Positions 3,120 to 55,266 of a stretch of 64,000 nt of DNA are shown piece after piece (position 1 is the stretch's first letter; each line of letters opens with the position of its first letter). Source of the DNA: a virus (Duplodnaviria; Heunggongvirae; Uroviricota; Caudoviricetes). The notes under the pieces are model-generated. The model had not been told where the DNA came from, made no database searches, and worked only from the letters and a program-made list of their open reading frames with translations. The stretch is from IMG/VR virus record IMGVR_UViG_3300035516_000805; one strand, given 5' to 3'. Made by a program: the position numbers and the translations under genes.

Positions 3120-3129
3120 TAACTATGTT

Positions 3130-5609: not shown

Positions 5610-5867
5610 AATTACAACCTTCTTTCTGTATTATTTTTACTTTTATATAATAAGACAAAAATCATTTAATTAAGTTCCTTATAAAGTTAATAATTTTGGA
5701 CATTTTTATTTATTTTGTTAAAAAAGATAACAAAATAAATAAGTTCTTACACAATGTAAACTTTAAAAGTTATACATACTATAATGGTCTTTAATTTTAA
5801 AGATAATCATATACCGTTCCATTATAATAATTTTTATGTGAAATTACAATAATAGTTTTCATATAAA

Positions 5868-5999
5868 TTATTTAAAAACTGACTGTCCCATTTTTCCTAT
5901 ACAATAAATATTTATAGAAGAAGTGGAACATATATCATTTTTATCATTATTGTAATGTTTTTCTATATAATAGGTATATTGATATGGTATATGATTCAT
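5868..5999 (-). CDS. small conserved ORF inside long direct repeat copy A (43 aa)
   Basis: MNHIPYQYTYYIEKHYNNDKNDICSTSSINIYCIGKMGQSVFK; a near-identical ORF is present in repeat copy B, differing by amino-acid replacements rather than frameshifts. Confidence 0.3.
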   Translation of the reverse strand: MNHIPYQYTYYIEKHYNNDKNDICSTSSINIYCIGKMGQSVFK

Positions 6000-6113
6000 A
6001 TATTTTTACCCTTTAACGCAAAAACTTTATAATGTTTCACTTTTTAAGGTCTTATTTTAAGTTTTTAACTTTTATACATAAAATTTTTATATTTAAAACG
6101 AAAAAACTTATAA
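5884..6113 (+). repeat. copy A of ~230-bp long direct repeat (copy B at 35266-35498)
   Basis: Near-identical sequence by eye (a few mismatches). Confidence 0.85.
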
Positions 6114-6129
6114 TTTTAGGACTTTACAT

Positions 6130-6420
6130 TTATAAAAAACATAAAAGTTAAAATTTTATAAGGTTTAATCATAAAATTCTTTAAATTTCTATTTTATCTA
6201 TAAAAGTTTAACCTTTATAGATTTTAACCTTTAAAGAATAAAACCTTTATAGATTTTACTTTAAAGGTTTTCCATTTTATAGTTTTTCACTTTTATAGTT
6301 TTTCACTTTTATAGTTTTTAACCTTTAAAATATTCAAACTTTTATAGTTTTAAAACTTTTAATTTTCCAAACCTTTATAATTTAAACATTAATATACTTT
6401 CGGCTAAAGTTTTGACTTTT
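6130..6420 (+). repeat. iteron-like array (putative replication origin)
   Basis: Repeated CTTTTATAGTTTTT / ACCTTTATAGATTTTA units, including 3 perfect tandem 16-mers CACTTTTATAGTTTTT. Confidence 0.6.
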
Positions 6421-8452: not shown

Positions 8453-8839
8453 ATGATAATGCCTTATAAAAAATATCAAGATGAAAACCAATACATTACT
8501 ATTTATAAAAATTATGGATATGAAGCAAAAATAATACAATTTATCAGCCCACTGGATAATAGTCCATATTTATCAGTTGAAGTAAAATGTGAATATTTGA
8601 ATTTTCACCCGTATCCAATAATTAAATATAATCGTGCCACAAATCAATTAGAAGGAATATTCAATTCTTTTTTTGTGCTAACAGAAAATAACGAACAAGA
8701 ATGGATTCTAGGAATTCAAAATGCAGTTAATTTTATCAAAGAAATGAATGAAGTGATTAAAAAAGATTTGCAAATGGATATAAAAGAACTACAAGAACTA
8801 CAAGAACTACAAGAACTTCAAAATATTCAAGAAAAATAA
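8453..8839 (+). CDS. hypothetical protein with C-terminal ELQ repeats
   Basis: Translationally coupled to the previous ORF; 9-bp tandem repeat gaactacaa at 3' end. Confidence 0.55.
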   Translation: MIMPYKKYQDENQYITIYKNYGYEAKIIQFISPLDNSPYLSVEVKCEYLNFHPYPIIKYNRATNQLEGIFNSFFVLTENNEQEWILGIQNAVNFIKEMNEVIKKDLQMDIKELQELQELQELQNIQEK

Positions 8840-8859: not shown

Positions 8860-8960
8860 AAAAACAGAACTTAGATAGTAGTTTTGAAAGGAACTACTAT
8901 CAGTAGTTATTTTATAACTACTGTTTAAGAAATTCTTTAGAACTTCCAACTAACCAAAAT
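8860..8960 (+). repeat. intergenic hairpin-repeat cluster (TAGATAGTAG...CTACTAT / TTCTTTAGAA / CTTCCAACTAACC)
   Basis: cagaacttagatagtagttttgaaaggaactactatcagtagttattttataactactgtttaagaaattctttagaacttccaactaacc. Confidence 0.7.
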
Positions 8961-8982: not shown

Positions 8983-9030
8983 GTTTTACATTATTAATAG
9001 TAGAAACATTAATTGTTTCTACTATTTTTA
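8983..9030 (+). promoter_or_regulatory. class II motif + AGTAG...CTACT hairpin
   Basis: ggttttacattattaatagtagaaacattaattgtttctactattttta. Confidence 0.5.
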
Positions 9031-20686: not shown

Positions 20687-20789
20687 AAGCACATACCATA
20701 TAAAGGAAACAAAGGACAGCTACAGCTTTTCATATAGTGGAGATTTAAAAGAGGCTTTGGAAAAGGCACTTAAGGATGCAAAGGCAGGT

Positions 20790-20870
20790 CAGTTGGTAGT
20801 TCTCTGAGAGAACTACCAACACTACTGATAGTAGTTATAAAATAACTACTATCTAAGAAAGTGTAAACTC
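20790..20870 (+). repeat. hairpin-repeat cluster
   Basis: gttggtagttctctgagagaactaccaacactactgatagtagttataaaataactactatctaag. Confidence 0.7.
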
Positions 20871-20925: not shown

Positions 20926-20952
20926 TTGACATTAATAGTAATACAATGTCAA
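20926..20952 (+). promoter_or_regulatory. class I promoter/operator
   Basis: ttgacattaatagtaatacaatgtcaa. Confidence 0.55.
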
Positions 20953-20997
20953 AATTAAAATAGAAATTCACACACTAAAAGGGGGAACAATGGTATT

Positions 20998-23848: not shown

Positions 23849-24123
23849 AATGATGTTAGCTAGTAGTCCTTTTAGGACTATTTAAACAATAGTTATTTAT
23901 AACTACTATCTAAGATATAAAGAAATTTTAAATAGTTTATCAAAAGAGCAGCTAATATATTTAATAATATAGGCAGTAGTTTTAAATTACTGTCTATTTT
24001 TTTATTTTCCATTTTACTATAAATTCTAAAGAATTTACGGTGTATAGAAGTTCTAAAAGAACTTCTATTAAACAAAACATTATTTATAATGTTTTAGGGA
24101 AATTCTATAAAAACAGAACTTCC

Positions 24124-24168: not shown

Positions 24169-24828
24169 ATGGATAAGAAATATGAATTGACAGATGAAAC
24201 AATAAAAATTGATAGCGGTGAAGTATTACATAGAATTAAAGCTTTAAAAGACTTTGCAGACATTAAAGCAGGCGACATTGGAGGATTTGTAGAGTCAGAA
24301 GATAATTTATCCCAAGAAGGTAATTGTTGGATATATAATGAAGCTAAAGTATATAATAACGCTAGAATTTCAGATAATGCTTTAGTTTATGATAATGCTA
24401 AAATAACAGGTAATGCCATAATTTATGGCAATGCTAAAATTTATGAATATGCACATGTCTATGATAATGTTATAATATCCGGTAATGCCATAATTAGTGG
24501 CAATGCTAAAGTTTATGATAATGCTAAAGTTTCATATAATGCACAAGTCTATGGTAATGCTATAATTTCAAATGATGTTAAAATTTGGGGTAATGCAATT
24601 ATTTATGATAATGCCAGAATTTATGATTTAGCTAGAATTTATGATGATGCGAAAATTTTTGGTCACGCTAAAATTTATGGTAACACTAAAATTTTAGGCA
24701 AATCAAAAATTTGCAACAACACTGAAATTCATGGTAATTTCTTTATCTGTGATAATGTAAAGTTTGATGCTAATATGTCTGTCATTGAAAATTTTAATAA
24801 AGATGAACAAATAAATGAAGAACGATAA
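24169..24828 (+). CDS. hexapeptide-repeat (left-handed beta-helix) protein
   Basis: About 20 consecutive 6-residue repeats [YF]xNAx[IV] (18-bp DNA periodicity). Confidence 0.7.
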   Translation: MDKKYELTDETIKIDSGEVLHRIKALKDFADIKAGDIGGFVESEDNLSQEGNCWIYNEAKVYNNARISDNALVYDNAKITGNAIIYGNAKIYEYAHVYDNVIISGNAIISGNAKVYDNAKVSYNAQVYGNAIISNDVKIWGNAIIYDNARIYDLARIYDDAKIFGHAKIYGNTKILGKSKICNNTEIHGNFFICDNVKFDANMSVIENFNKDEQINEER

Positions 24829-24859: not shown

Positions 24860-24930
24860 GGAAGGTCAGTTAGTAGTCCTTTAGGACTACTAACACTACT
24901 AATGGTAGTTTTACCTTCCATCAAAGTTAA
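24860..24930 (+). repeat. long composite hairpin repeat
   Basis: tggaaggtcagttagtagtcctttaggactactaacactactaatggtagttttaccttccatc. Confidence 0.7.
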
Positions 24931-25349: not shown

Positions 25350-25482
25350 TATATAAAATGGAAGTTCTTTAGAACTTTTTAAATAGTAGTTATAAAATAA
25401 TTACTCTGATAGTAGTTATAAAGGAACTACTGTCTAAGATGGAAGGTTCAGACTTGGCTTTTAAAGATGAAAGGAAGAAAAA

Positions 25483-26220
25483 ATGATTGATTTTGCTATA
25501 ATTATTCCCTGTTACAATGAAGAAGCTGCCATAGAAGACGTTTTGAAAAATCTTATTTATGTTATTACACATGAGTTTACTGATAATAGTGTAAAAATTT
25601 TTGTATATGATAATAATTCTACTGATAATAGTGCAAAAATTGTAACAGACTTTATTGCTCAAAATTCATATGAAAATTTATCTGTAGAGTTAAGACATAC
25701 ATATAAACAGGGAAAGGGTTACGTTATCCGGCAGGCTTTTAAGGAAATTAATGCCAGATGCTATTGTATGATTGACGGTGATGATACTTACAGTGTAAGT
25801 AAACTTAAAACTATGTATGACCTTATAATCAATAAAAAAACTGATATGGTTATAGGTGACAGACTTTCTACAAGTTATTTTACTGAAAATAAGAGAATAT
25901 TTCACAATTTTGGAAATAAACTGGTAAAAAATATGATAAACAATATGTTTAATACATCATATAATGATATACTGTCAGGTTTTAGAACATTTTCATATAA
26001 TTTTGTAAAAACTTTTCCAGTTACTTCCAATGGTTTTACACTTGAAACAGAGATGAATATTTACGCAGCAAGTCATAACATGTCTGTTTTAGATATACCA
26101 GTGGATTATAAAGACCGTAAAAATGGCAGTAAATCCAAAGTGAAAACAATTCCTGATGGTATCCGTATTATTTTTAAAATTTTAGATATGTTCAGACTAT
26201 ATAATCTTCCAACTAACTAA
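25483..26220 (+). CDS. family-2 glycosyltransferase (GtrB/CsbB/DPM1-like)
   Basis: IIIPCYNEE...VYDNNSTDNS...MIDGDD are signature GT2 motifs. Confidence 0.8.
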   Translation: MIDFAIIIPCYNEEAAIEDVLKNLIYVITHEFTDNSVKIFVYDNNSTDNSAKIVTDFIAQNSYENLSVELRHTYKQGKGYVIRQAFKEINARCYCMIDGDDTYSVSKLKTMYDLIINKKTDMVIGDRLSTSYFTENKRIFHNFGNKLVKNMINNMFNTSYNDILSGFRTFSYNFVKTFPVTSNGFTLETEMNIYAASHNMSVLDIPVDYKDRKNGSKSKVKTIPDGIRIIFKILDMFRLYNLPTN

Positions 26221-26346: not shown

Positions 26347-27228
26347 AACGAAAAAGAGAATACTTCAACAGCTATATGCTGGCGTATAACAATATGGTCA
26401 ATTTTTATAATCACCCTTTTATATTTATCATTTCAATTTAACGATACAGATTTATACTATATTATTCCAACAGGACGTTATATTTTACAAAATGGAATCC
26501 CTTATGAAAATCCATTTATAACAACAGCCGGACAAAATATTGTTATTCAAAATTGGCTGTATTGTGTAATTGTAGCATTTATTTATAATCATTTACACAG
26601 TGTAGGTTTGTGGCTATTACAATTAATAATTATAACTGCAATGGTAACTATAATCTTTAAATTCTTTGATTTTAAACATTCAGAGAATAAACTTATGGTT
26701 ATTATTTTTTCACTTATTATTATAAAATTATTTAGTTATATAAATTTAAGACCTGAAATACTTACTTTTATTTTAATTATATTAGAAATTCTAGGTTTGG
26801 AAAAATATATTACTACTGAGAAAGCATACTGGCTGTGTTTATTACCACTAACTACATTACTTGAGATTAACTGTCACGCAAGCTATTGGATAATGCATTT
26901 TATTGTAATTTTACCTTATTGTGTTCCAACTTTACCTGCAATTTCACGCAGTAAAAATACTTATATTAAAAACATAAAAAAATTAATCCTGCCAGTTTTT
27001 TCAATGATAGTAACATTATTTATTAATCCGTATAAAGTTAAAGCAATTCGGTATGTTTTTGATGCATTAAAATCCGGAATAATAAAATATAATGAAATTT
27101 GGGAACAACAGCCATTTACAATGTCAGATATATATACATATATATATATGTATATTAATTATTTTTATTATTATGTGGTATCAAAAGAAGTTGACTTCAA
27201 CAGAAACTTATATGTTTATTGGGTTTAA
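26245..27228 (+). pseudogene. polytopic membrane protein, 5' part (GtrC/YfhO-like candidate); frame breaks at a (TA)n tract
   Basis: Multiple TM segments; N-terminus carries a 51-bp tandem duplication; frame continues in the overlapping ORF 27092-27910. Confidence 0.5.
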
Positions 27229-27910
27229 TACATTATTTGTATTTGCTATAAAATGGACAGCTTTTTATGTAATTGCAGTAATGTTTTTATTTAGAGCAAT
27301 TCACAGACAGGTTAAGGAGAAAAATAAAATTGAAAACATTAAAGCTTCTAAAATTAATATTTATCTGCTTTTGATATCCTATACAGTAACATTTTTAGGC
27401 TATATGCTTACAGAAAATTCGTTTAAATGTTTTGATTTTACGGATACATATATGAATACATGTCTAAATAAAAAGAGTCTGCAGCCACTTAATGATATTG
27501 CTGATTATCTTGATGAGAATGACCCTGATGCATCAATATTTGCAATTTTTGAACAGTCAAACTATTTTGAATTTAGAGGCTATAAAGTTTATAGTGATGC
27601 AAGACCGGAACTTTATACAAAAGAAATTGCCGGTTCAGATGATATATCCGTAAATGTTTTGTGTATACAAAAAGGTTATAATGTCTTTTTATATAAAGAA
27701 AATACTGGTATATTTTCATCTTCAGATGAAAATAATTTAGTTAATTCTCTTATAGATTTAAAAACTTATAAAGCTGTAATTGACAGTATTAACACAGATT
27801 ATTTTGTAGTTAATAAGTTTAATACGGCATTTTGGTATTATTTAGAAACATCAGATGATTATACTTTCATTATGGATTCCGGACAATTTGCATTATATTT
27901 AAGGCAGTAG
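27092..27910 (+). pseudogene. polytopic membrane protein, 3' part (same gene as 26245-27228 after a frameshift)
   Basis: The frames overlap around atatatatacatatatatatatgtatat (about 27126-27158); TM helices continue. Confidence 0.5.
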
Positions 27911-27936
27911 TATAAGTACTACTGCCTGTTTATTTA
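27903..27936 (+). terminator. intrinsic terminator
   Basis: ggcagtagta-taag-tactactgcc hairpin followed by tgtttattta. Confidence 0.6.
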
Positions 27937-32821: not shown

Positions 32822-32877
32822 AATTTTTAAAAATATTTTTGTTAAAAATTTATACATTAGGTAATAATTATACATTT

Positions 32878-32914
32878 GGTGTATGGCTAATGCCATACAC
32901 CTCTTTCTTTTTAT
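32878..32914 (+). terminator. intrinsic terminator (cassette copy 1)
   Basis: ggtgtatggc-taat-gccatacacc hairpin followed by tctttcttttt. Confidence 0.75.
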
Positions 32915-32988
32915 GTCAGTTGGAAGTTTTTATAAAACTTACAACACTACTGTTAGTAGTGCTTTTAGCACTACTAACTAAGGAGGTT

Positions 32989-33045
32989 TTTATGTCATAC
33001 TATTGATATTACTATTAATGTGATGTCATATTTTAAGTGAAAAAA
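32989..33045 (+). promoter_or_regulatory. class I promoter/operator (cassette copy 1) with extra ATGTCATACTATTGACAT palindrome
   Basis: ttatgtcatactattgatattactattaatgtgatgtcatattttaagtgaaaaaaaa. Confidence 0.6.
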
Positions 33046-33069
33046 AATATGGGAGGAATTTAGAAATAA

Positions 33070-35223: not shown

Positions 35224-35245
35224 AACACAAAGGTAATTATTTTTT

Positions 35246-35372
35246 TTTAAAAAAAGTGTCCCATTTTTCCTATACAATAAATATTTATAGAAGAAGTGAA
35301 GCATATATCATTTTTATCATTATTGTAATGTTTTTCTATATAATAGGTATATTGATATGGTATATAATTCAT
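35246..35372 (-). CDS. small conserved ORF inside long direct repeat copy B (42 aa)
   Basis: MNYIPYQYTYYIEKHYNNDKNDICFTSSINIYCIGKMGHFF, a paralog of the ORF at 5868-5999. Confidence 0.3.
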
Positions 35373-35498
35373 ATATTTTTACCTTTTAACGCAAAAACTT
35401 TATAATGTTTCACTTTTTAAGGTCTTATTTTTTAAATTTTTAACTTTTTTTTACATAAAATTTTTATATTTAAAACGAAAAAACTTATAATTTCAAGA
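35266..35498 (+). repeat. copy B of ~230-bp long direct repeat
   Basis: Near-identical to 5884-6113. Confidence 0.85.
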
Positions 35499-35499
35499 C

Positions 35500-35600
35500 T
35501 TTATACTTTAAAAAACTATAATTTTAAAGCATAAATAATAAAAAACTTTATATTTTTAAAACTTAAATAACAAAAATTTTAATTTTTAAAACTTATAAGG
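35500..35600 (+). repeat. iteron-like AAAACTTATA repeats
   Basis: At least 5 spaced copies of AAAACT[TA]TA between the long repeat and the PIF1-like gene. Confidence 0.5.
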
Positions 35601-35608
35601 AGAAAACT

Positions 35609-37600
35609 ATGGCAAAAAGAACTTTATATCCTTCACTTATAACGAATATAACAAAAGAATATTACGCTTTATGGTCATCTTCAAAAGTAATTACTTTAAA
35701 TGAACTCATGGATATACAAGACTTTATAGAAAATAAACATATATCGGATGACATTGATAATGTAGTTATTAGAAAGTATGTAAATGAAATAAATGATATT
35801 TGTCAGGAAAGAGTGTCAAAAGATATAAGACTTTCGGCTTTAGTTTTATCAATAAATCAGTCTTATAACGAAAAATTCTTTGCACCAATGAAGCATAGAA
35901 CTGAATTATTAATGGATATTGCAAGAAACCGTTTAATGATAAAAGGATGTGAAAGAAGAAATTTTATTTTTGCTTTATATAATACAACTTTAGCTTATCT
36001 TCCTCCAAAAGACCGGTTAAAACTTGTTTATGAAATGAATTGCAATTTTAATACTCCATTATCTGATAGTGAAGTTTTATGTGAAATTGCAAATGCAGAA
36101 TATAAATATCAGACCAGTGGACGTTATTGGAAATGGTCTAATGAAAAATTAGTAACATATTTAGGATTAACAGCAGATGAAATTATGACATATTTCCCTG
36201 AATTGTTACAGAAAGAGGAGAAAAAACAGAATAAGGAATTAAGAAATATACTGATTATGGAATATTTCAATCAAGGCAACAGTTACCGTCAGATTGCAGA
36301 AAAATTAAAGGCAAAGGATATAGACTGCAGTAAAAACACTGTTATGCGTGTTATTCAGACTAATATTGTCAATAGGAAGCAGATAGAAAATCAGAATAAG
36401 GAAATCATTAATTTAGACAATGTACAGTTTACAGGGAAAAATATGATTTCTTATGAAAATTTTAAGGAAATTGTATTAAGTGGTTATAACATTAAAGTAA
36501 TCGGTATGGCAGGAACAAGTAAAACTTTATATATTAAGCATTTAGAAGAAGATTTAAGAGAAACAACAGGGTATAAACAAAAAAATCGTATTAAAATATG
36601 TGCTTTTACAGGAAAAGCTAGTGAAGTTTTCAAAGAAGGCTCAACACTGCATTTAATGATGGGAATTAAAAATGAGGAAATGATAAAAAATCATCAGTTT
36701 GATGAAAATGCTTTAAATAATTTCAAAAAAACAAAGCTTATTATCATTGATGAGATTTCCCTAGTAGGGAAAAAGCTTTTTGATTACTTTATTGAGTTTT
36801 ACAAAAAGTCCGGATGTAAAGGTAATATTGTAATTGTTGGTGACTTTTTACAGTCAAAACCTGTAAAAGATGATTTTTGCTTTAATTCAAAATATTTTGA
36901 TGAATTAAATTTTAAGACAATTCTTTTAAAGAAAAATACAAGACAAACTGATAAAGGGCAGCAGGCAACATTAATGGACTTAGAATGGGGTAAAAACAAA
37001 ATGCAGACTATTCATAATTTAAATCTGCTTGTTAAGAGTAAAACAATAAAGGATTTTAATTATGATGCATTTAGTGTCTGCTTAACAAAGGAACAGGTCC
37101 GTTACATTAATGCTTTACAGGTACAGCATCGTTTTAAAGATGATAAACCGGTTTATTATAATAAAAAGGCATATTATTTAGGGATGCGTGTAATGATTAC
37201 AGCTAATAATACTAAAAAATGTTATTTTAATGGCAATTTAGGTACAATTAAGGCATTTAATAAAAATTCTATTCGTGTCATCTTGGATAATGGCAGGGTT
37301 GTAAACGTGGAATATATTATGAATAAAAATAATATAATTATGCCATTAGAATACGGATATGCTGCAACTGTACAAAAGTGTCAAGGAATGACGTTTAACA
37401 GAATGAACCTTATTGCTATGGATTTACATAATAATGAAACAAATAATGTCTTTATGGAAGGACAGCTATATACGGCTCTCTCAAGATGTGTAGATTTAAA
37501 GAAAATTAACTTAATCGGACAACCTTTTAAAGAAAGCGACATTAAAGTTAATCCTTATGCATTACGTTTTCAGTTTAACTTATATCAATGCGTTAGTTAG
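35609..37600 (+). CDS. PIF1/RecD-like SF1B DNA helicase
   Basis: Walker A GMAGTSKT, Walker B IIIDEISLV, motif TVQKCQGMTF (helicase motif V-like); RBS AAGGAG. Confidence 0.75.
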   Translation: MAKRTLYPSLITNITKEYYALWSSSKVITLNELMDIQDFIENKHISDDIDNVVIRKYVNEINDICQERVSKDIRLSALVLSINQSYNEKFFAPMKHRTELLMDIARNRLMIKGCERRNFIFALYNTTLAYLPPKDRLKLVYEMNCNFNTPLSDSEVLCEIANAEYKYQTSGRYWKWSNEKLVTYLGLTADEIMTYFPELLQKEEKKQNKELRNILIMEYFNQGNSYRQIAEKLKAKDIDCSKNTVMRVIQTNIVNRKQIENQNKEIINLDNVQFTGKNMISYENFKEIVLSGYNIKVIGMAGTSKTLYIKHLEEDLRETTGYKQKNRIKICAFTGKASEVFKEGSTLHLMMGIKNEEMIKNHQFDENALNNFKKTKLIIIDEISLVGKKLFDYFIEFYKKSGCKGNIVIVGDFLQSKPVKDDFCFNSKYFDELNFKTILLKKNTRQTDKGQQATLMDLEWGKNKMQTIHNLNLLVKSKTIKDFNYDAFSVCLTKEQVRYINALQVQHRFKDDKPVYYNKKAYYLGMRVMITANNTKKCYFNGNLGTIKAFNKNSIRVILDNGRVVNVEYIMNKNNIIMPLEYGYAATVQKCQGMTFNRMNLIAMDLHNNETNNVFMEGQLYTALSRCVDLKKINLIGQPFKESDIKVNPYALRFQFNLYQCVS

Positions 37601-40916: not shown

Positions 40917-41042
40917 AGTATATTTTATTTTTCTATAAAATGATATATATTATATATATTACAAATATACAATTATTACTTTAATAGTAGTTCTGAAAAA
41001 CTACTATTTAAGTAATAAAAAAAAGAGAAAGGGAGATTTACT

Positions 41043-41324: not shown

Positions 41325-41395
41325 AATACAACAGATAAGCACAAAAGGAGAACGATTATAATAAGAGATTTACACATTAAGTAATAATTATACAT

Positions 41396-41432
41396 TTGGT
41401 GTATGGCTAATGCCATACACCTCCTTCTTTTT
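41396..41432 (+). terminator. intrinsic terminator (cassette copy 2)
   Basis: Same hairpin as at 32878. Confidence 0.75.
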
Positions 41433-41442
41433 ATAGAGGTTT

Positions 41443-41497
41443 TTTATGTCATACTATTGACATTACTATTAATGTGATGTCATATTTTAAGTGAAAA
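41443..41497 (+). promoter_or_regulatory. class I promoter/operator (cassette copy 2)
   Basis: ttatgtcatactattgacattactattaatgtgatgtcatattttaagtgaaaaaa. Confidence 0.6.
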
Positions 41498-41517
41498 AAT
41501 ATGGGAGGAATTTAGAA

Positions 41518-43662
41518 ATGGTTATATATGGTATGGTTTCCGGAGATAATAAAAAATCTGCAATCCTTTATCGTAATGAATTGAATGGCTATACCATATT
41601 TACGATTGATGTTGATGATACTAAGGTTGTCTGTAAAGGTAAAATTCTTACAATACAGGATGAAATGTATTTATCTTTAACAGGTAATTGCTATATAGAT
41701 TCTCAGAGAAGAACATGTTTTGTTTTTGACAGTTATGAAATTATTATAAATGCCAATACTTTAAAGGCTTCTTTTTTAAAGAAATTAAATATTAAAGGTT
41801 TAACGATTGCAAAAATCAATAAAATCTTAGAAAAATTACCAACAAATGAAGAATTTAACAAAATAAGTGAAGCTAAGTTTTTAAACTTATTTGAAAACAC
41901 TAAGGGTATTGATAACTATACTTTGCATACATTATACGAAGTATTAAGGAACTTAAACGAAGAACCGGAAATTGCTAATGAAATTTTAAAATATGGTGGT
42001 ACATATCATATTTTAACACAGATAAAGGATAATTTAAAGAAATATAGAGAAAATCCATATTTGTCTTTTATCCCTTTTAAGGTAGCAGACGGAGTTGCAA
42101 AAGATAGAAATTATTCTTTTAACAACGAACAAAGAGTAGAACGGATTGTTTTTGATATTTTTAATAACAGTTTACAAAATGGCAATACGTGTTTAACCTA
42201 TGATGAAATTAACAGGGCTTATGAACATTTTAAAAAATATGGAGAACGACATATTAAGGAATTACCGTCTATTCAATATATTTTTGCCATTATTGAAAAT
42301 TCTCCATTATTTACTGTCAAAGAATTAGATGGTGAAAATTATTATTATCTAACATATGTGGCAGAACAGGAAAACAATGTTGTTGAAGATGTTATAAGAC
42401 TTACACGATATGCAACAACAAATGTTATTAAAGTAGATACACCGGATTATTTAGGACCATCACAGAGAATTGCATTTGAGGGTATTTTTAAAAATAGTGG
42501 AATTACAAGCGGCATTTATATTATAACAGGTGGTCCCGGTACTGGTAAAACAACTTTGACAAAAGCTTTAATAGATAATTTCAGTAAGTATTATGACCCT
42601 GAAAGAATTGTACTTTGTAGTCCAACCGGATGCGCTGCACAAAATATGGAAAAGAAATGTCAAAAGGAAGCATTTACAATTCATAAAACATTAGGAATTT
42701 GTCCATCAAGCAGTAATCAGCAAAAATTAACCAGAAGCAAGAACTTAAAAGCAGATGTTATCATTGTTGATGAAGCATCTATGCTTGACTTGGAATTAAC
42801 TTCACTTTTGTTCTCAGCGGTTAAAACAGGTGGAATTTTAATTTTAATAGGAGATGTCAACCAGTTACCATCTGTTCGTTATGGAAGAGTGTTAAAAGAT
42901 TTAATTGACAGCCATAAAATTCCTACATTTTATTTAAGGGAAACATATCGTCAGGCTGAAGGAAGTTTAATCATTACTAATGCAAACAATATACTAGAAG
43001 AAAAAGACTTATTTACTGGAAATGATTTCAAAATTCAATATTTTGAAAATGATACTGCACTTTTAAATGCAACTATGGAATTTGTTAAATTATATAAGAA
43101 TAATATGGTTTTAACGCCAAACAGACAATTTTTAACAGGAAGTGTTGAATTAAGTTATCAGATTCAGGAACAAAAAAAGTTAGAGGAATGTAGTAAAATT
43201 AACACAAATAAGGTATTTTACGATTATAATGAACGTCCATTGTTTTATATTGGAAGCAGAATCATAGCAACTTCAAACAGCTATGAGTATGGCTATTATA
43301 ATGGAGATATGGGAGTTATAACAGATATATGCCCAAGTGGTATTGAAATTGTTTTTGATAAGAATAAAAACTCAATAGAAAGGACAACCTTTATTCCTAC
43401 AAGTATTGTTATTACCGATATTGAACTTGCTTATGCAATTTCTATTCATAAATCACAGGGCAGTGAGTACAATGAAATTTTAATTATCTTATCAGATGAC
43501 AGTAAAAGCTTATGTAATAAGAACTTACTATATACAGGCGTTACAAGGGCAAAAGAAAAAGTAACAATTTATGTTACTGGAAATGAAAAAGTAAACTGGC
43601 TGCAACGAGCAATTCATACAGAGGAAAGTAAAAGGAACTCTATTTTGTCTCATTTGATTTAA
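41518..43662 (+). CDS. RecD-like SF1B helicase 1
   Basis: Walker A GGPGTGKTT, Walker B IIVDEASMLD, GDVNQLPSV, IHKSQGSEY; start ATG after GGGAGG RBS (track start 41491 lies in the promoter). Confidence 0.8.
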   Translation: MVIYGMVSGDNKKSAILYRNELNGYTIFTIDVDDTKVVCKGKILTIQDEMYLSLTGNCYIDSQRRTCFVFDSYEIIINANTLKASFLKKLNIKGLTIAKINKILEKLPTNEEFNKISEAKFLNLFENTKGIDNYTLHTLYEVLRNLNEEPEIANEILKYGGTYHILTQIKDNLKKYRENPYLSFIPFKVADGVAKDRNYSFNNEQRVERIVFDIFNNSLQNGNTCLTYDEINRAYEHFKKYGERHIKELPSIQYIFAIIENSPLFTVKELDGENYYYLTYVAEQENNVVEDVIRLTRYATTNVIKVDTPDYLGPSQRIAFEGIFKNSGITSGIYIITGGPGTGKTTLTKALIDNFSKYYDPERIVLCSPTGCAAQNMEKKCQKEAFTIHKTLGICPSSSNQQKLTRSKNLKADVIIVDEASMLDLELTSLLFSAVKTGGILILIGDVNQLPSVRYGRVLKDLIDSHKIPTFYLRETYRQAEGSLIITNANNILEEKDLFTGNDFKIQYFENDTALLNATMEFVKLYKNNMVLTPNRQFLTGSVELSYQIQEQKKLEECSKINTNKVFYDYNERPLFYIGSRIIATSNSYEYGYYNGDMGVITDICPSGIEIVFDKNKNSIERTTFIPTSIVITDIELAYAISIHKSQGSEYNEILIILSDDSKSLCNKNLLYTGVTRAKEKVTIYVTGNEKVNWLQRAIHTEESKRNSILSHLI

Positions 43663-43679: not shown

Positions 43680-46091
43680 ATGGTATTTCAGTTAAAAACT
43701 AAGGAATATGTAAAACCTGTAACAGTTGAAAAGACTTATTCCGGTACAATTAAAGCTATTCCATTTTATGATGAAGCAAGTGGATATATTATCGCAAAAA
43801 TGGAAGTAAATAATAGTGATGTATATTTTTCAATGAGCTTAAAGGGATACTATACAGGTTTATGCGTTAATGATAAGGTTATAGTAACCGGAGAAGTTAA
43901 AAATGATAAATATGGTAATTATATCCAGTTTGATAATCTATCCGTACAAAGTGATGAAAGTGAAAATGGAATTTGCCGTTATCTGGTTGACTGTATTAAA
44001 GGCATTGGAGAAAAATCCGTAAAAGAAATTTATCATAAATTAAAACTTTCTGCGTCAACCTTGGATATATTAGGAAGCAAGGATTTGAAAGACATAAAAG
44101 GATTTAAGACAAAGTATAAAAATATAAATAAGACTTATAAAAGTACAAAGCATTTAATTCCTTTATATCTTTATACAAATGGTTTAATTACAAAAAATAA
44201 GATTACTGCAATTTATGATAAATATAAAGAAGATGCCGTAAAAGTTTTAAGCGAAAATCCATATTTATTAATTTCTATGAACGGAATCAGTTTTAAGACA
44301 GCAGATAAAATTGCATTAAAACTTGGCATTGATGTCTATAGTGAATCTCGTTTAAATTATGGAATAAGCTTTATATTGGAAACTTTAACAGAAAAATATG
44401 GAAGTACGGTTTATGGTTTAGAGGAGGTCTTAAATAATTATAACTTATTATTAAATGAAGATGTATTGATTTCTCTTTATTATAAGAACATAAAAGGTTT
44501 TGATAAGCTTCCGGCGGATATTTCTGAGTATATTGCAATGAATAATACTTTTAAAGACGGCATTGCATTTATAACTGATAAGGAACTTAGTACACTTTAT
44601 GAAAATTATAAGCAGTATTTAAAGGAACACTTACAAAGTATTATCTTAAATAATGCTTTAAAGATACCTACTGAAGACTTAATAAAATTAAATGTTGAAA
44701 CTTTAGCATTATCAGAATATCAGTATATTTATTTTACGGATACTAATAAGGTAATAACGAAGTATTATTTATCCTTAGAGCTTAGAAGTGCAGCATTTTT
44801 GAATCAGTTAAATCATGAGAATCATTTTTCGTTAGACTTTGATAATATTTTACAAAATTTCAGGACTTCAAAAGGTTATACATTGGATGATGACCAAAAA
44901 AGAGCTGTTAAGAATGTTATCTGTAATAATTTAAGTATTATAACAGGTGGTCCGGGAACCGGTAAAACAACAATCTTAGAGTGTGTATTGTATATATTAA
45001 AAGAAATTTTAAGAAAAGATGTAATTTTATTAGCACCAACAGGAAAAGCTGCAAAAAGGATGTCACAGTGTACAGGTATAGAAGCAAGTACTATTCACAG
45101 ATATGTTTTTAGCAATAAAGGAAAATATATTAGGAATAATAATACGTGGTATATTATTGATGAGGCTTCAATGCTTGATATTAAGATATTAGAGTGGATG
45201 CTTAGAGAAGTTGACCCAAAGCATCTTATATTTATCGGAGATATATACCAGTTACCTAGCATTGGTGCAGGAGCCGTACTTAGGGATATGTTAATCAGCA
45301 ACATTCCGAGTGTAAGACTGGAACATTGTCATAGAAATGCAGGCTCTATCAGTAAAAATGCTGAGAAAATCAATCAGGGAAGCAGAATATCTGATTTAAT
45401 TGAGGATAATCATTTTGAGACATATTTTTATGGTAAAGACACTGATTATGAAATAATGATGCAGAAAATCATTGATTTATATATGGAAAATTTAAGCACA
45501 TATGGTGTAAATGAAATGGTAGTACTTGCACCAATGAAAGAACGCTGTGTTTGTACAAGAGAAATTAATAAGAGACTGCAGAATATTTTACATCCGGATG
45601 AAATAATCAAAAAGGTTAATAGCAAGGAATTTCGTAGAGGTGACAGAGTTATTCAGTTGACAAATAATTACAAAGCTGACATTTCGGAAACTTATCCTAT
45701 GATGAATGGTGAATTGTTTACAATATTAGATTTTGAAACAGTGGAAGATGAAGAATTTGTAATTTTGAAAGCTGATGAAAGTTATGAAGATGGCACAACA
45801 GTTATTAAAAGAAAATTGACTGATATGTGTGAAATGGACTTAGCATATGCCTTAACTATTCATAAATCACAGGGTAGTGAGTACAAATTTGTTATTGTAG
45901 CATTAACAAAAGCTGATTATATGTTATTGCAGCGAAACTTATTATATACTGCCGTTACAAGAGCAAAGGAAAAGATTGCCTTAATTGGACAGCCATATGT
46001 AATGCAGATTGCAATTGACGATACAAGTAAGGCAATTAATAGAGATACTACGTTAAATAAATTAATCATAACAGGTCAGCTAGTAGCTTAG
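43680..46091 (+). CDS. RecD2-like SF1B helicase 2 (with HhH-like N-terminal region)
   Basis: GGPGTGKTT, IIDEASMLD, GDIYQLPSIGAG, IHKSQGSEY; HhH-like GIGEKSVKEI. Confidence 0.8.
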   Translation: MVFQLKTKEYVKPVTVEKTYSGTIKAIPFYDEASGYIIAKMEVNNSDVYFSMSLKGYYTGLCVNDKVIVTGEVKNDKYGNYIQFDNLSVQSDESENGICRYLVDCIKGIGEKSVKEIYHKLKLSASTLDILGSKDLKDIKGFKTKYKNINKTYKSTKHLIPLYLYTNGLITKNKITAIYDKYKEDAVKVLSENPYLLISMNGISFKTADKIALKLGIDVYSESRLNYGISFILETLTEKYGSTVYGLEEVLNNYNLLLNEDVLISLYYKNIKGFDKLPADISEYIAMNNTFKDGIAFITDKELSTLYENYKQYLKEHLQSIILNNALKIPTEDLIKLNVETLALSEYQYIYFTDTNKVITKYYLSLELRSAAFLNQLNHENHFSLDFDNILQNFRTSKGYTLDDDQKRAVKNVICNNLSIITGGPGTGKTTILECVLYILKEILRKDVILLAPTGKAAKRMSQCTGIEASTIHRYVFSNKGKYIRNNNTWYIIDEASMLDIKILEWMLREVDPKHLIFIGDIYQLPSIGAGAVLRDMLISNIPSVRLEHCHRNAGSISKNAEKINQGSRISDLIEDNHFETYFYGKDTDYEIMMQKIIDLYMENLSTYGVNEMVVLAPMKERCVCTREINKRLQNILHPDEIIKKVNSKEFRRGDRVIQLTNNYKADISETYPMMNGELFTILDFETVEDEEFVILKADESYEDGTTVIKRKLTDMCEMDLAYALTIHKSQGSEYKFVIVALTKADYMLLQRNLLYTAVTRAKEKIALIGQPYVMQIAIDDTSKAINRDTTLNKLIITGQLVA

Positions 46092-46140
46092 ATGGTAGTC
46101 TTCATATTAGTTGGAAGATTTTATCTTCCATCAGAGTAGT
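46085..46140 (+). repeat. hairpin-repeat cluster
   Basis: cttagatggtagtcttcatattagttggaagattttatcttccatcagagtagtgttggtag. Confidence 0.6.
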
Positions 46141-46196
46141 GTTGGTAGTAATTTAGATTGAACTCGTAGTTCACTCGTTTAAAAAGGAGGCAGATT

Positions 46197-46373: not shown

Positions 46374-46475
46374 GAAGTTCTTTTAGAGAACTTTCAACTA
46401 ACTTAGCTAGTAGTCCTAAAAGGACTACTAGCTAAGTTAAGATTTCAAAACGATATAGTGGTTATTTTTGTATTA

Positions 46476-47434: not shown

Positions 47435-48253
47435 ATGATTGAGAAATTTGAAAGTGCTGTACCAGAAATATCAGAACCACAAAATTCAGTAATGTTAACA
47501 GGTGTCATCAAAGGAAATATATTATATAAAGACAATCGGGTTTCATTTAATATGGAAGTTTTTAAAGGACCTGTTAATAAATTTAATGATAAAGATTTTC
47601 ATATTCCAGAATATGTTTATCCAATTATTTCAACAGAGAATAAAGAATTAATTAATGAAATTAAACATTATCAGTTAAAAGATGGAGATGTTGTTTTAGT
47701 AACAGGTATTTTAACTACACGTAAAGGAATTAAAATGTCAGAATGTCCACAATGTCATTCAATTCAAAGTTCTATGTGTGTTTATACTTATATTGAACCT
47801 GTATATGTTCATCCAATGCCGGTTACAAAAAAGAAAAAGACTAAAGAAGAATATTCAGATACTACTTATGACAAACTCAGAGAATACTGGGATATAAGTA
47901 ATAGTGTAACCGTTTTATTTGGTCGTATATTTGATAATCCAGTACAAAAAGGTGAAAACATTGTAAGTTATAATGTTTCTCTACCAAAACCGTGCGGTAT
48001 TACAGGAGATTTAGACGTTTCAAAGGAAAAACAGGATAATATTCATATTGAAACATCTGTAAAAGAGAATAATTTACATAAAAATGATTTAGTAGTTATA
48101 TCAGGATATATTAATGTAAAAAAATCTACGGTAAAACATAAATGTACGGATTGTAATACTGATTTTCATATTCCGGTATCAGTAACAGAAATAATTGGTA
48201 AAACTGACATAGTAGAAGATGAAGAAAAACAGTTAATTAACTATAAATTCTAA
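47435..48253 (+). CDS. hypothetical protein with two CxxC pairs
   Basis: CPQCHS and CTDCNTDF; RBS GAGAGG. Confidence 0.55.
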   Translation: MIEKFESAVPEISEPQNSVMLTGVIKGNILYKDNRVSFNMEVFKGPVNKFNDKDFHIPEYVYPIISTENKELINEIKHYQLKDGDVVLVTGILTTRKGIKMSECPQCHSIQSSMCVYTYIEPVYVHPMPVTKKKKTKEEYSDTTYDKLREYWDISNSVTVLFGRIFDNPVQKGENIVSYNVSLPKPCGITGDLDVSKEKQDNIHIETSVKENNLHKNDLVVISGYINVKKSTVKHKCTDCNTDFHIPVSVTEIIGKTDIVEDEEKQLINYKF

Positions 48254-48374
48254 AGAATTTGTAGTTTTCATCAATTTTTCATTAAAAATGAAAAATTTGA
48301 TTTTACCGTAAATTCTAAAGAATTTGCGGTGTAATGGAATTTCTATTTTAAAAATGTAAAAAATAGAATTTCCA

Positions 48375-50758: not shown

Positions 50759-50879
50759 AATCTTAAAAAATCTTATTTTTATCATTTTTTTATTAAAAAT
50801 GAAAAATTCCATTTTACTACGAATTCTAAAGAATTTGTAGTTTTCATCAATTTTTTCATTAAAAATGAAAAATTTGATT

Positions 50880-52708: not shown

Positions 52709-52755
52709 TTTTACATTATTAATAGTAGATAGAAAAATTTTCTATCTACTATTTT
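52709..52755 (+). promoter_or_regulatory. class II motif + hairpin
   Basis: aattttacattattaatagtagatagaaaaattttctatctactattttt. Confidence 0.5.
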
Positions 52756-53321: not shown

Positions 53322-54125
53322 ATGGGGAAAAATAAAAAAGGTGTTTTTTATATATATTTTACAATCCTTTATTTTTTATTGTTATTTTTAGTTCTATTTC
53401 TTTTCTTTTGGATACTGTCACAGAAAAAAAATACATCTATCGGAGATTATCCGGATGACGATAAGGTTTATTACACCAATTCAGGTAGTAACTTAGAAGA
53501 GTTATTATCTGAATCAGTAATTGACAGAGCTACTAACTTAGATAGTAGTGCTTTTAGCACTACTGATTCAGATAATAACTCTGAAATCACTACTGTTCAA
53601 AATACAAAAGAAAAAGATAATTATTTATTAGTAATCGGTGACAGTAGAACTGTAGGAATGGAATTAACAGTAAATGAAAATGACAATATTCAATATATTG
53701 CTGTTCCCGGAGAAGGTTATAACTTATTAAAGGAAAACTTAGATAATATAAAAAACTTTTATCAGCAGTATGAAACAGACATAACTTCTGCCAAAATTGT
53801 ATGTAATTTGGGAGTAAATGATTTATCTCAGGTAAATACTTATAAAGAAACTTATGAAAATTTACTAAAAGAAGGTATTTTAATTGCTTTTATGACGGTA
53901 AATCCGGTAGAAGATTCATTGTCAGATTATACTTATACTGTTACAAATGAAGAAATAGATAATTTTAATGATATTATAAAGGCGTTGGACATAGAAGTTT
54001 TAGACACTAATAAATATTTAAAAGACATTTCTTTTGAAACCACAGATGGTTTACATTATACGGATGATACTTATAATAAATTATATCAATATTTGTGTGA
54101 ATATTATGAAATAACTGTTATTTAA
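53322..54125 (+). CDS. secreted/membrane-anchored SGNH (GDSL-like) hydrolase
   Basis: N-terminal TM helix; block I VIGDSRT, block III GVNDLS, block V DGLHYTDD; the linker contains an in-frame hairpin-repeat copy. Confidence 0.65.
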   Translation: MGKNKKGVFYIYFTILYFLLLFLVLFLFFWILSQKKNTSIGDYPDDDKVYYTNSGSNLEELLSESVIDRATNLDSSAFSTTDSDNNSEITTVQNTKEKDNYLLVIGDSRTVGMELTVNENDNIQYIAVPGEGYNLLKENLDNIKNFYQQYETDITSAKIVCNLGVNDLSQVNTYKETYENLLKEGILIAFMTVNPVEDSLSDYTYTVTNEEIDNFNDIIKALDIEVLDTNKYLKDISFETTDGLHYTDDTYNKLYQYLCEYYEITVI

Positions 54126-54237: not shown

Positions 54238-55266
54238 ATGAATAATGTAAATGAAACAATATTGAATGAAGATAAAATATTGGAAGAATATATTTTGGCA
54301 GAAAATGAAGATGCTTTATATAATAAAGAAACTGCCGTTCAAGACGCTGAAGATATAACAGACAATGAAATGTCATATGATAAAATGATGAAATATATTG
54401 CAAAATCGCAAAGAACAGGCAATTTAAAAGATAATTCAACATTGTTTCAGGAATATAATGATTTAATAAAAAATAATGCTGCACCGGAGGATATTAAGAA
54501 AAAGAAAGAAGAAATTTTAATCCGGAATTTAGGTTTAATTTCAACTGCTATAAAGCAATTAGGTTTAAGTAGTGTAAGTCGTAATGATAAAGCAGATTAT
54601 ATGCAGGAAGGCACATTTGGATTAATAACTGCCATTGATAAATTTGATAGTACAAAGAACGTTCAATTTTCTACTTATGCAATGATTTGGATTAAACATC
54701 ATATAACAAGATATATATATAACTGTAAAAACAGCATTAGAATTCCTGTTTGTAAAAGGCAGCATATCTTAAAAGTAAATAAGACTGTCCGTGAAATGGA
54801 AAAAGAAGGATGGAGTACTGAGGCAGCTTATAATGATATAGATGAACTTAAAAAGAGAACAGGATATAGTCAACAGATTATTGAATCTGCCATTGAAGGT
54901 ATGACAATGGCAGATAACAATGCCAGTTTGGATAAATCAACCAGTACAGACAACGAAGAACTTTCCATTGCCAGTGTAATTCCTTCTAATATAAACATTG
55001 AAAAAGATTATGTTAATTCTGTATATAATGAAAAAATTATGTCGCAATTAATGTCAGGATTAAAAGTAAGGGAAATAGACGTTATTAATTTACGTTTCGG
55101 TTTTACAGGGAATGGTTGTGAAACCTTAGAAAGTGTCGGACAGAAGTATGGTCTTTCCAGAGAACGTGTCCGTCAAATAGAATTAACGGCAATTAGAAAA
55201 ATGAAAGCAAATGCAGTTAAATATCATATTTCAAGATACGAAGTAGACGAAAGCTTAGAAAGATAA
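54238..55266 (+). CDS. sigma-70 family RNA polymerase sigma factor
   Basis: Region 2 DYMQEGTFGLITAIDKFD...FSTYAMIWIKHHI; region 4 HTH LESVGQKYGLSRERVRQIELTAIRKM. Confidence 0.8.
   Translation: MNNVNETILNEDKILEEYILAENEDALYNKETAVQDAEDITDNEMSYDKMMKYIAKSQRTGNLKDNSTLFQEYNDLIKNNAAPEDIKKKKEEILIRNLGLISTAIKQLGLSSVSRNDKADYMQEGTFGLITAIDKFDSTKNVQFSTYAMIWIKHHITRYIYNCKNSIRIPVCKRQHILKVNKTVREMEKEGWSTEAAYNDIDELKKRTGYSQQIIESAIEGMTMADNNASLDKSTSTDNEELSIASVIPSNINIEKDYVNSVYNEKIMSQLMSGLKVREIDVINLRFGFTGNGCETLESVGQKYGLSRERVRQIELTAIRKMKANAVKYHISRYEVDESLER

Follow-up and report, generated by a model that had tools for sequence, protein, structure and literature searches.

Our analysis of a 64,000-nt stretch of DNA from the IMG/VR virus record IMGVR_UViG_3300035516_000805 (hereafter the window) concerns a family of short hairpins, one of which lies in frame inside the gene of an SGNH-type hydrolase, open reading frame (ORF) 53322-54125. 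The data indicate that these hairpins are probably a lineage-private repeat family on an AT-rich plasmid-like replicon, comparable to the repetitive extragenic palindromic (REP) sequences and bacterial interspersed mosaic elements (BIMEs), and that the in-frame copies within genes are tolerated. We favour this reading because the family is extragenic, mosaic and present in both orientations, because one copy differs as a discrete indel between paralogous regions, and because the copies inside genes sit in frame at tolerant places. We analysed the window and the DNA flanking it on the same metagenomic replicon (about 19 kb), 83 kb in total.

The hairpins were defined by the pattern R-G-W-A-G … C-T-W-C-Y with complementary inner sequence. 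By this definition the window holds 30 perfect family hairpins, where Markov simulations gave 0.78 on average and at most 5, and the window plus flanks hold 34, each 19-41 nt long, which corresponds to approximately one per 2.4 kb. The base of the stem is conserved (G-W-T-R-G-W-A-G / C-T-W-C-Y-A-W-C) and the apex is variable yet complementary. The three outermost positions, which the search did not impose, form Watson-Crick pairs in 91-94% of cases with two to four pair types, and positions 5-8 read GTAG in 24 of the 34 units and GAAG in 10, paired with CTAC on the other arm. The apices fall into subfamilies (…CC-TTTTA-GG…, …GC-TTTTA-GC…, …TA-TAAAA-TA… and …TC-TAAAG-GA…) and are identical within a subfamily. 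When core pairs were considered irrespective of what separates them, 35 of 49 were fully complementary inside with a loop of at most 6 nt (8.6 expected, maximum 15), and the spacing between their half-sites varied from 4 to 28 nt. Variable spacing together with complementary spacers points to a hairpin and not to an operator. The folding z-scores of family units range from -4 to -8, and no Rfam family matching the hairpins was found.

The units recur in an ordered way. A two-hairpin module of about 66-70 nt has the build GTYA-(H1 GTTGGWAG…CTWCCAAC)-ACTACT-(H2 GAYAGTAGT…ACTACTRTC)-TAAGTT, and clusters of three hairpins also occur. With an nhmmer profile built from six modules, about 24 loci reached E<1e-3, and of the 12 longest matches five are in forward and seven in reverse orientation. 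The 21-mer AGTAGTGCTTTTAGCACTACT is present exactly at 53544-53564 and at 32955-32975, as the preliminary description of this DNA had noted for the inner hairpin of the hydrolase gene, and has four further copies at 2-3 mismatches, with no match expected from 100 shuffles; the search for the 21-mer gave 8 hits against 0 expected. The stem changes among these copies are compensatory (GTGC/GCAC versus GTCC/GGAC or GTTC/GGAAC). Two arm words, the 12-mer CTTCCAACTAAC and the 14-mer CTTCCAACACTACT, have seven copies each against 0.01-0.03 expected (0.01 for the 12-mer in the window), and the half-sites AGTAGT/ACTACT are also found singly.

Genes are strongly avoided: 3 of 20 independent family loci fall inside ORFs at a coding density of 82% (P=1.6e-10), and one of the three lies in a doubtful 60-aa antisense ORF. 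As landmarks for the copies we took start codons, terminators and a promoter-like site that recurs in the window (TTGACATTA…TAATGTCATATT). The modules at 13482, 20792 and 32919 are each situated between a terminator and the promoter-like site that follows it; the copy at 15780 belongs to a 5' untranslated region (UTR), that at 18288 precedes a terminator within a 3' UTR, and those at 3094 and 4386 separate convergent or divergent genes. Relative to these landmarks the family has no fixed position.

A pair of paralogous regions shows what a copy looks like when it is present and when it is missing. The region 32840-33048, upstream of the topoisomerase gene, and the region 41360-41502, upstream of a helicase gene, have flanks that are 89-97% identical, and their sole large difference is a clean 66-nt gap, which is the module. 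The filled site places this module between the terminator 32878-32901 and the promoter-like site 33003-33032, and the module contains the exact twin of the hairpin at 53544. Therefore, the module is a discrete block of 66 nt that was gained or lost as a unit.

The preliminary description had located a palindrome inside the hydrolase gene and had taken it to encode the linker between a transmembrane (TM) anchor and the catalytic domain, and both statements hold. The 30-mer cttagatagtagtgcttttagcactactga occupies positions 53537-53566 of a 267-aa ORF whose gene call is identical to that of JGI, and the hairpin at 53544 encodes residues N72-D84 (NLDSSAFSTTDSD); the family copy as a whole reads NLDSSAFSTTD in the linker of the protein. 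In the AlphaFold model a TM helix (residues 5-37) is followed by a disordered part (37-96; predicted local distance difference test score, pLDDT, below 50) and by a confident alpha/beta domain (99-261), and the peptide N72-D84 falls inside the stretch of low pLDDT, between the predicted helix and the domain. The Pfam GDSL match of the protein is sub-threshold. The label of an SGNH-type hydrolase nevertheless holds: G106-D-S-R, G132, G164-V-N-D and D242-G-L-H, corresponding to blocks I, II, III and V (GDS, G, GxND, DxxH), are invariant in nine homologues, and the best Foldseek matches in the PDB are GDSL/SGNH enzymes (E~1e-6).

The copy in ORF 15852-17141, which had been announced near 16715-16750, is a perfect 10-bp hairpin at 16714-16736 encoding SWKVEPSNTTIQ, and with its flanks it encodes VSWKVEPSNTTIQV in a protein with a helix-turn-helix (HTH) domain. 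It consists of H1 and of an H2 that appears to have collapsed between the two ACTACT direct repeats, and its terminal TAAGTT reads CAAGTT, by which the stop codon is removed. The site is a linker past a conserved coiled coil, about 10-45 residues long across 17 homologues, and none of the 17 conserves the repeat-encoded peptide; the preliminary description had named conservation of such a peptide without the palindrome as the observation that would speak against it. An alignment of four sequences had given the impression of a clean six-residue insertion here, which we rejected, as 18 sequences display a linker of hypervariable length. This hypervariability is evidence of tolerance and not of precise insertion boundaries.

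Further copies extend the picture to the ends of proteins. A copy absent from the preliminary description encodes GQLEVFKSSNIT within the low-complexity C-terminal tail of ORF 4597-5136. The nhmmer E values of the three hairpins inside ORFs are 1e-5 to 6e-5. Just upstream of the window, a module makes up the final ~17 codons of the gene for the alpha subunit of DNA polymerase III (Pol III), so that the C-terminus of the protein reads LDSSLKTTISTV… up to the stop, and more units lie right past this stop. The copy assigned earlier to ORF 9050-10585 does exist, at 10292-10309, so that the earlier 10270-10300 is slightly off, and it is part of a decayed module that spans 10292-10332: an exact 14-mer CTTCCAACACTACT at 10293, which is the 3' arm of H1, is followed by the connector and a bulged second hairpin, and the whole encodes PSNTTKMESETFH. 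For the two C-terminal segments described as LPTNT and LPTN, the word CTTCCAACTAAC is exact at 59790-59801, where it is read as ELPTNT, and at 26206-26217, where it encodes NLPTN and the TAA after it is the stop codon of a glycosyltransferase gene; these two are arm fragments and not hairpins. Three of the sites cited for ORFs (9050, 59409 and 25483) are consequently to be read as arm fragments or decayed copies, not as perfect hairpins.

A check of the reading frames, which the preliminary description had called for, gave a uniform result. The canonical module is stop-free in only one of its six frames, reverse frame 0 (NLDSSYFITTISSVGSFIKLPTN), and its forward frame 0 meets no stop before the terminal TAA (VSWKFYKTSNTTDSSYKITTI and stop). 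Every copy inside an ORF uses one of these two: reverse frame 0 in ORF 53322, Pol III alpha, ORF 59409 (ELPTN) and ORF 25483 (NLPTN and stop), forward frame 0 in ORF 15852 (VSWKVEPSNTTIQV) and ORF 9050 (PSNTT). As a result, the peptides LDSS..TT, PSNTT and LPTN are common to unrelated proteins of the replicon. The copies keep the family flanks as well as the stem, and their sites are a disordered linker (ORF 53322), a hypervariable linker (ORF 15852) and C-terminal tails (ORF 4597, Pol III alpha). The idea of miniature repeats colonising ORFs as tolerated linkers is in this way borne out by the kept flanks, the avoidance of genes, the 66-nt indel, the stop-free frames and the tolerant sites. 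Copies in the window are collected in Table 1.

Table 1. Family copies and other recurrent sequence features of the window (positions in the window; H1 and H2, first and second hairpin of the module; RBS, ribosome-binding site).
Feature	Position	Strand or orientation	Context	Sequence	E value
In-ORF copy	53535-53567	reverse module	ORF 53322-54125	AACTTA-GAT-AGTAGTGCTtttAGCACTACT-GAT (H2 + TAAGTT flank)	5.6e-5
In-ORF copy	16710-16751	forward module	ORF 15852-17141	GTTA-GTTGGAAGGTagaACCTTCCAAC-ACTACT-ATC-CAAGTT	6.2e-5
In-ORF degenerate H1	4985-5019		ORF 4597-5136	GTCA-GTTGGAAGTTTTcAAAAGTTCCAAC-ATTACT, one mismatch	1.1e-5
Decayed in-ORF module	10292-10332		ORF 9050-10585	CCTTCCAAC-ACTACT-AA-GATGGAAAGtgaaaCCTTTCATC	
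Arm fragment	59782-59801		ORF 59409-59828	GAACTTCCAACTAAC	
Arm fragment	26206-26220		glycosyltransferase ORF 25483-26220	CTTCCAACTAAC, then TAA	
Full module, filled site	32915-32980	+		GTCA-(GTTGGAAG..CTTACAAC)-ACTACT-(GTTAGTAGTGCTtttAGCACTACTAAC)-TA	5e-20
Empty site lacking the 66-nt module	41430-41440	+	paralogous terminator-promoter region		
Extended module	13478-13568	+		12-nt terminal inverted repeats GTTAGTTGGAAG...CTTCCAACTGAC	2e-16
Full module, reverse	18283-18349	-	3' UTR, stop codon 18259 to intrinsic terminator 18347-18373		1.8e-19
Full module	20788-20858	+	upstream of promoter-like site 20926-20955		2.5e-18
Three-hairpin cluster	4386-4502	-	divergent genes either side	AATGGAAG.., GATGGTAG.., GATAGAAG..	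1.5e-14
Cluster or mosaic unit	8869-8954	-	past stop of ORF 8453-8839	GATAGTAGTT.., CAGTAGTTAT.., ..AGAACTTCCAACTAAC	4e-10
Two hairpins	15780-15835	-	5' UTR of ORF 15852, promoter-like site 15702-15731 to RBS		
Module variant	24865-24922	+	past stop of ORF 24169-24828	outer helix GATGGAAG...CTTCCATC	6e-8
Hairpin pair	46374-46439	.	downstream of minus-strand PIN gene	19-bp stem TAACTTAGCTAGTAGTCCTaaaAGGACTACTAGCTAAGTTA	1.7e-8
Further copy	46086-46153				
Single hairpin	3094-3123	.	between convergent gene ends	GCTGGTAGTTTTTAAAAACTACCAGC, then TAAC	
Hairpin	25404-25445	.	~50 nt upstream of ORF 25483	GATAGTAGTTataaaggAACTACTGTC, then TAAG	1e-4
Hairpin, terminator-like	27902-27927	.	overlaps stop codon of ORF 27092-27910	AGGCAGTAGTAtaagTACTACTGCCT	
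Subclass A hairpin	8996-9026	+	between leader motif and RBS	AATAGTAG..CTACTATT, then T-run	
Further subclass A copies	40983-41008, 52721-52753, 58582-58611, 61344-61371; imperfect ~63808-63837				
Leader motif	959, 4546, 6465, 8984, 17783, 24125, 33070, 48375, 52709, 54195, 58570, 61332, 63796	+	30-50 nt upstream of many start codons	ATTTTACATTATT	
Promoter-like site	10623, 13626, 15702, 18458, 18895, 20926, 28726, 29737, 29912, 33003, 37638, 41457, 49261	+		TTGACATTAnTAnTAATACAATGTCATATT	
Second hairpin family	24011-24044, 48235-48268, 48300-48333, 50811-50844, 58506-58539, 61268-61301		intergenic	ATTTTACCGTAAATTCTAAAGAATTTACGGTGTA	

The module at 13478-13568 folds as one long hairpin with an inner hairpin, as REPINs do (z -6.9), and the cluster at 4386-4502 includes a module in reverse orientation. 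One group, subclass A, may be a special case: its hairpins always stand between the invariant leader motif ATTTTACATTATT and the RBS, where they extend the spacer by about 25-30 nt compared to seven hairpin-less leaders. We considered these leaders as a second filled/empty pair and rejected them, as what sets them apart is a scatter of small indels instead of a single block. Subclass A hairpins may therefore be 5'-leader structures that arose in situ, or functional ones. As to the leader motif itself, a similar sequence, TTTTTTACATTTTTA, is kept in the 71%-identity relative L059 (85-100, 520-535), and the sigma factor that the element itself encodes (54238-55266) may recognise ATTTTACATTATT.

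The family appears to be private to the lineage of this replicon, judging from sequence comparison. A relative of 95-97% identity keeps both hairpins unchanged, which is uninformative with about 2.4 substitutions expected over those bases, and the family hairpins are absent from relatives at about 30% (L005-L008) and 55-71% (L059-L061) protein identity. Pattern scans of viral contigs (TTACATTATTAATAGTAG; GTTGGAAG..CTTCCAACTAAC) returned single chance matches with no family around them, a scan of a genome collection (GTTGGAAGTTN{3,8}AACTTCCAAC) gave 26 single matches in unrelated phyla of differing GC content, which we regard as chance, and a metagenome scan (GTTGGAAGN{5,15}CTTCCAACACTACT) gave two chance matches, neither of them a hairpin, in a collection that evidently does not include the source contig.

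Several observations weigh against a REP/BIME-like family. No Y1/HUH transposase, RAYT or IscB was found in the 83 kb, where all window ORFs of at least 80 aa and the called genes of both flanks were searched, and REPIN-RAYT systems are almost never plasmid-borne (PMC5581495). There is a single filled/empty pair, for which deletion is equally possible; at its filled site, 32915-32980, a target-site duplication is not visible, and the left flanks of 11 modules lack a conserved target. No relative at middle distance is at hand to display insertion polymorphism at the ORF sites. Subclass A stands at a fixed place, has ATAGTA in common with the hairpin-less leaders and provides no clean indel. Additionally, GTAG lies inside the stem and is mirrored, unlike the one-sided tag of classical REPs (PMC3733652), and strict membership in the GTAG-REP superfamily is not established.

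The basic units are the single hairpins of 19-41 nt, two of which, joined by ACTACT and flanked by GTYA and TAAGTT, make up the module. If the family is REP/BIME-like, the copies would spread as non-autonomous elements, by a mechanism that we infer: the likeliest route is that hairpins in single-stranded DNA are handled in trans by an HUH/Y1-type transposase encoded elsewhere, with RAYT- or IS200/IS605 TnpA-like proteins as the candidate class. Insertions into ORFs would survive only if they are in frame, stop-free and in tolerant segments, and it is through such survival that unrelated proteins would gain LDSS..TT, PSNTT and LPTN. Single intergenic copies may secondarily serve as barriers at mRNA 3' ends or as 5' stabilisers, as REPs do, which would not define the family.

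The phenomenon of in-frame palindromic repeats is already known; this family, private to the lineage, is new. Ogata et al. in 2000 reportedly described in-frame palindromic insertions in the protein genes of Rickettsia, the Rickettsia palindromic elements (RPEs). The preliminary description had invoked Correia and REP elements as precedents, and the REP part of the comparison stands, while Correia elements are a poorer analogue than both REPs and RPEs. With the REP/BIME/REPIN group the family shares stem-loops of 20-40 nt in many, overwhelmingly extragenic copies; dimers, clusters and mosaics with conserved linkers, including the long-hairpin pair at 13478-13568; termini that give stop codons to ORFs; whole copies in ORFs, Pol III alpha among them; and GTAG at the foot of the stem in 24 of the 34 units. 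GTAG-tagged REPs likewise form dimers and clusters and often supply the stop codon of a neighbouring ORF, and in some species REPs lie within ORFs and encode 20-30 residues, especially in replication and repair genes including dnaE (PMC3733652). The differences are that the GTAG/GAAG here is base-paired and two-sided in AT-rich stems, that the described families are mostly proteobacterial and chromosomal whereas this one resides on a plasmid-like replicon of 27% GC with a probably Gram-positive-type host, that no RAYT was found in the 83 kb, and that the density, about one per 2.4 kb, is much higher.

The RPEs resemble the present family in that palindromes lie in frame in unrelated genes, the peptide is tolerated, the sites are modular or terminal and the same peptide is repeated (PMC3733652). 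They differ in size and tag, RPE-1 having about 100-150 nt and the related short units being CGTC-tagged, whereas the units here have 19-41 nt and no CGTC terminus; the sequences are unrelated, Rickettsia is an obligate intracellular alpha-proteobacterium, and the share of copies inside ORFs is far higher there than the approximately 4 of 24 loci here. Palindrome-associated transposable elements (PATEs) derived from IS200/IS605 are similar in their hairpin-defined ends, in the lack of a terminal duplication at the filled site and in the co-residence of an IS605-family TnpB and a HEARO/omega RNA. In contrast to PATEs, the family is unlike the end hairpins of the resident TnpB element and displays neither a target tetranucleotide nor a strand bias, and no TnpA was found. 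Correia elements, about 100-155 bp long with 26-bp terminal inverted repeats and a TA duplication, and classical MITEs (miniature inverted-repeat transposable elements) are also small, non-autonomous, mostly intergenic and able to alter transcript structure, and one copy here (13478-13568) has 12-nt terminal inverted repeats; here, however, each unit is one short hairpin whose apex varies, and a target-site duplication was not seen.

One would argue that the hairpins are functional RNA structures, such as 3'-end barriers, attenuators or terminators, 5' stabilisers or RNase sites, and that the copies inside ORFs are intragenic signals, for example for ribosome pausing or for the stability of mRNA segments. 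Nearly all genes are on the + strand, so that most hairpins are probably transcribed; copies occur right past stop codons or before terminators (18288, 23862, 27902); subclass A is always found between ATTTTACATTATT and the RBS, with a T-run in some cases; and the stems stay perfect with compensatory variation, even within ORFs. REPs are known to act on mRNA in such ways (PMC3733652; bioRxiv 10.64898/2026.03.23.713779). However, the three full modules at 13482, 20792 and 32919 have a terminator on one side and the following promoter-like site on the other, further copies occupy 5' UTRs or the space that separates convergent genes, modules point both ways, a paralogous region does without the module, the positions within ORFs have nothing in common except tolerant protein segments, and related elements are without the family. 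For the family as a whole we hold this explanation to be unlikely, and the suggestion in the preliminary description that structured RNA signals were placed within genes is not supported, given the absence of a fixed position and the presence of both orientations. Secondary RNA effects of individual copies are likely.

Similarly low is the probability that we give to a plasmid-borne, self-contained hairpin system of a new kind, consisting either of hairpins with an unrecognised mobilising enzyme or of single-stranded DNA elements needed for transfer or replication. In the first version the family would sit on a transmissible replicon of a low-GC host, have a symmetric GTAG/CTAC foot and lack a RAYT or TnpA nearby. 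If such a system were real, the leader motif ATTTTACATTATT-ATAGTA would be the evolutionary source of the hairpins, and the possibly split hairpin at ORF 59409 would give a hint that genes are captured in the loops of hairpins. The observation behind the latter is that GTTGGAAGTTCTAAA (5' arm and loop, 59374-59388) and GAACTTCCAACTAAC (3' arm and flank), about 390 nt apart and bracketing the RBS and most of ORF 59409-59828, would together form a perfect family hairpin, the same as that at L056:6333-6358 in the flank. Either both pieces are copies that have decayed, or an insertion into the loop of one hairpin has split it.

Less probable still is a role of the hairpins as single-stranded DNA in conjugative transfer or replication, by ssi-like priming, as single-strand promoters, in nuclease protection or in the loading of RecD2, SNF2 or topoisomerase proteins. 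A Mob_Pre relaxase on the replicon, PrgI and VirB4-like genes in relatives, the almost uniform gene orientation, the many helicases with a topoisomerase, the density of about one hairpin per 2.4 kb and the seeming privacy of the family to the lineage agree with such a role. On the other hand, known ssi/Frpo elements are few, long and orientation-specific, as opposed to 34 short palindromes pointing both ways, related conjugative elements have none, and the indel pair shows that a copy is locally dispensable.

We consider it very improbable that the palindromes are double-stranded operators of an HTH regulator or sigma factor, with intragenic operators inside the ORFs. Several HTH proteins and a sigma-70-family gene are encoded, the half-sites AGTAGT/ACTACT also occur singly, and ATAGTA is shared by leaders past ATTTTACATTATT, but an operator in B-DNA needs neither the variable spacing of 4-28 nt nor the complementary spacer (35 of 49 versus 8.6 expected), many copies are distant from any promoter-like site, and another palindrome (TTGACATTA..TAATGTCA) already overlaps the recurrent promoter. 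The least credible option, folded recombination sites bounding gene cassettes as integron attC sites do, could draw on unidirectional genes with hairpins between many of them, on the resemblance of GTTGGA / TCCAAC to the attC core GTTRRR / YYYAAC and on the possibly split hairpin around ORF 59409, and it fails on the mirrored arm order (the 5' arm is GTTGGAAG, beginning with GTT, in this family and RYYYAAC in attC), on the separate promoter-like sites and terminators of most genes, on tandem clusters, copies inside ORFs and both orientations, on arms that match perfectly within each hairpin and so exclude hybrids, and on the finding of no integrase or tyrosine recombinase in the 83 kb.

The DNA that carries the hairpins is probably a large, AT-rich, plasmid-like mobile replicon of more than 90 kb from a low-GC, Gram-positive-type host. 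The window has a GC content of 27% and a coding density of 82%, with 66 of 74 retained ORFs on the + strand. It encodes two RecD2-like helicases, a PIF1/RecD-like helicase, an SNF2 helicase, a sigma-70-family factor, a type IA topoisomerase, an actin-like (ALP/ParM-type) partition protein, a signal peptidase, a DUF5688 protein, several HTH proteins and several HipA-like, Fic and PIN proteins; toxin-antitoxin-type genes are also present on the replicon. The flanks add the Pol III alpha subunit, a full-length and a truncated IS605-type TnpB, a nuclease and a Mob_Pre relaxase, and PrgI and VirB4-like genes adjoin distant relatives of one gene of the replicon. No phage structural genes were seen in the window or flanks, no tRNAs in the scanned DNA, and a megablast of 24 kb against phage and plasmid collections gave zero matches. 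The Pol III alpha subunit (1387 aa, L056:853-5016) is an unusual cargo for a plasmid. The three RecD2/PIF1-type helicase genes (41491-43662, 43680-46091 and 35609-37600), two of which are adjacent paralogues, the SNF2 helicase gene (55989-58454) and two HipA-like kinase pairs form a dense defence- or anti-defence-like cargo.

Elements of the IS605 kind are found nearby. Just beyond the window lie the 416-aa TnpB gene with end hairpins of its own (L056:7163-8413, minus strand) and the truncated gene of 156 aa (L052:12825-13295, plus strand); TnpA was not seen. The end hairpins of the TnpB element (CTTCCACC..GGTGGAAG and CCCACTT..AAGTGGTGGG) are unrelated to the family, and a link of the family to the resident TnpB or HEARO elements was rejected. 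A full-length HEARO RNA, the IscB-type omega RNA, is present at 17401-17611 on the plus strand (Rfam RF02033, 97 bits, E 1e-18); no IscB or HNH ORF stands beside it, the next ORF (17834-18259, 141 aa) being without a Pfam match, and it appears to be an orphan omega-RNA-like gene carried by a plasmid-like replicon.

The intergenic regions and genes contain other repeated sequences. The strand-specific promoter-like site TTGACATTAnTAnTAATACAATGTCATATT consists of TTGACA, 18 nt and CATATT with TG before it, and it is itself an inverted repeat (TGACATTA…TAATGTCA), which makes it a probable shared promoter overlapped by an operator. A second, unrelated family of intergenic hairpins (ATTTTACCGTAAATTCTAAAGAATTTACGGTGTA, six copies) often precedes another AT-rich hairpin (AAAATTTTTATTAAAATAAAAATTTT) and then the leader motif, an arrangement from which we conclude that intergenic regions were assembled from several reused blocks. 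A long intergenic duplication, 5863-6144 / 35236-35521 (93% identity over 196 nt and 88% over 75 nt), lies upstream of genes for an AAA ATPase and a helicase and suggests that regulatory regions were copied between operons. Two ORFs contain in-frame short tandem repeats: a 12-nt unit (CAATGATAGTAA) recurs about four times in the C-terminal part of ORF 1000-2274 (2222-2270), and a 9-nt unit (AAGAACTAC) three times in ORF 8453-8839 (8784-8810).

What gives the family a modest extra interest is that it resides on a plasmid at very high density, that its GTAG/CTAC foot is symmetric and that a transposase is absent nearby. For annotation, LDSS..TT, PSNTT and LPTN on this replicon should be regarded as repeat-derived and not as functional motifs, and repeats encode the C-terminal ends of several gene products, among them Pol III alpha and the glycosyltransferase. 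If a dedicated enzyme were found, the family would offer a compact system in which to study how hairpin repeats spread on a mobile replicon; failing that, it is a well-documented case of something already known. On the present reading, the REP/BIME way of life, with its dense short hairpins, mosaic build, stop codons given to genes and occasional in-frame entry into them, is not confined to the chromosomes of proteobacteria: here it is probably met, very densely, on a plasmid-like replicon of AT-rich metagenomic DNA.

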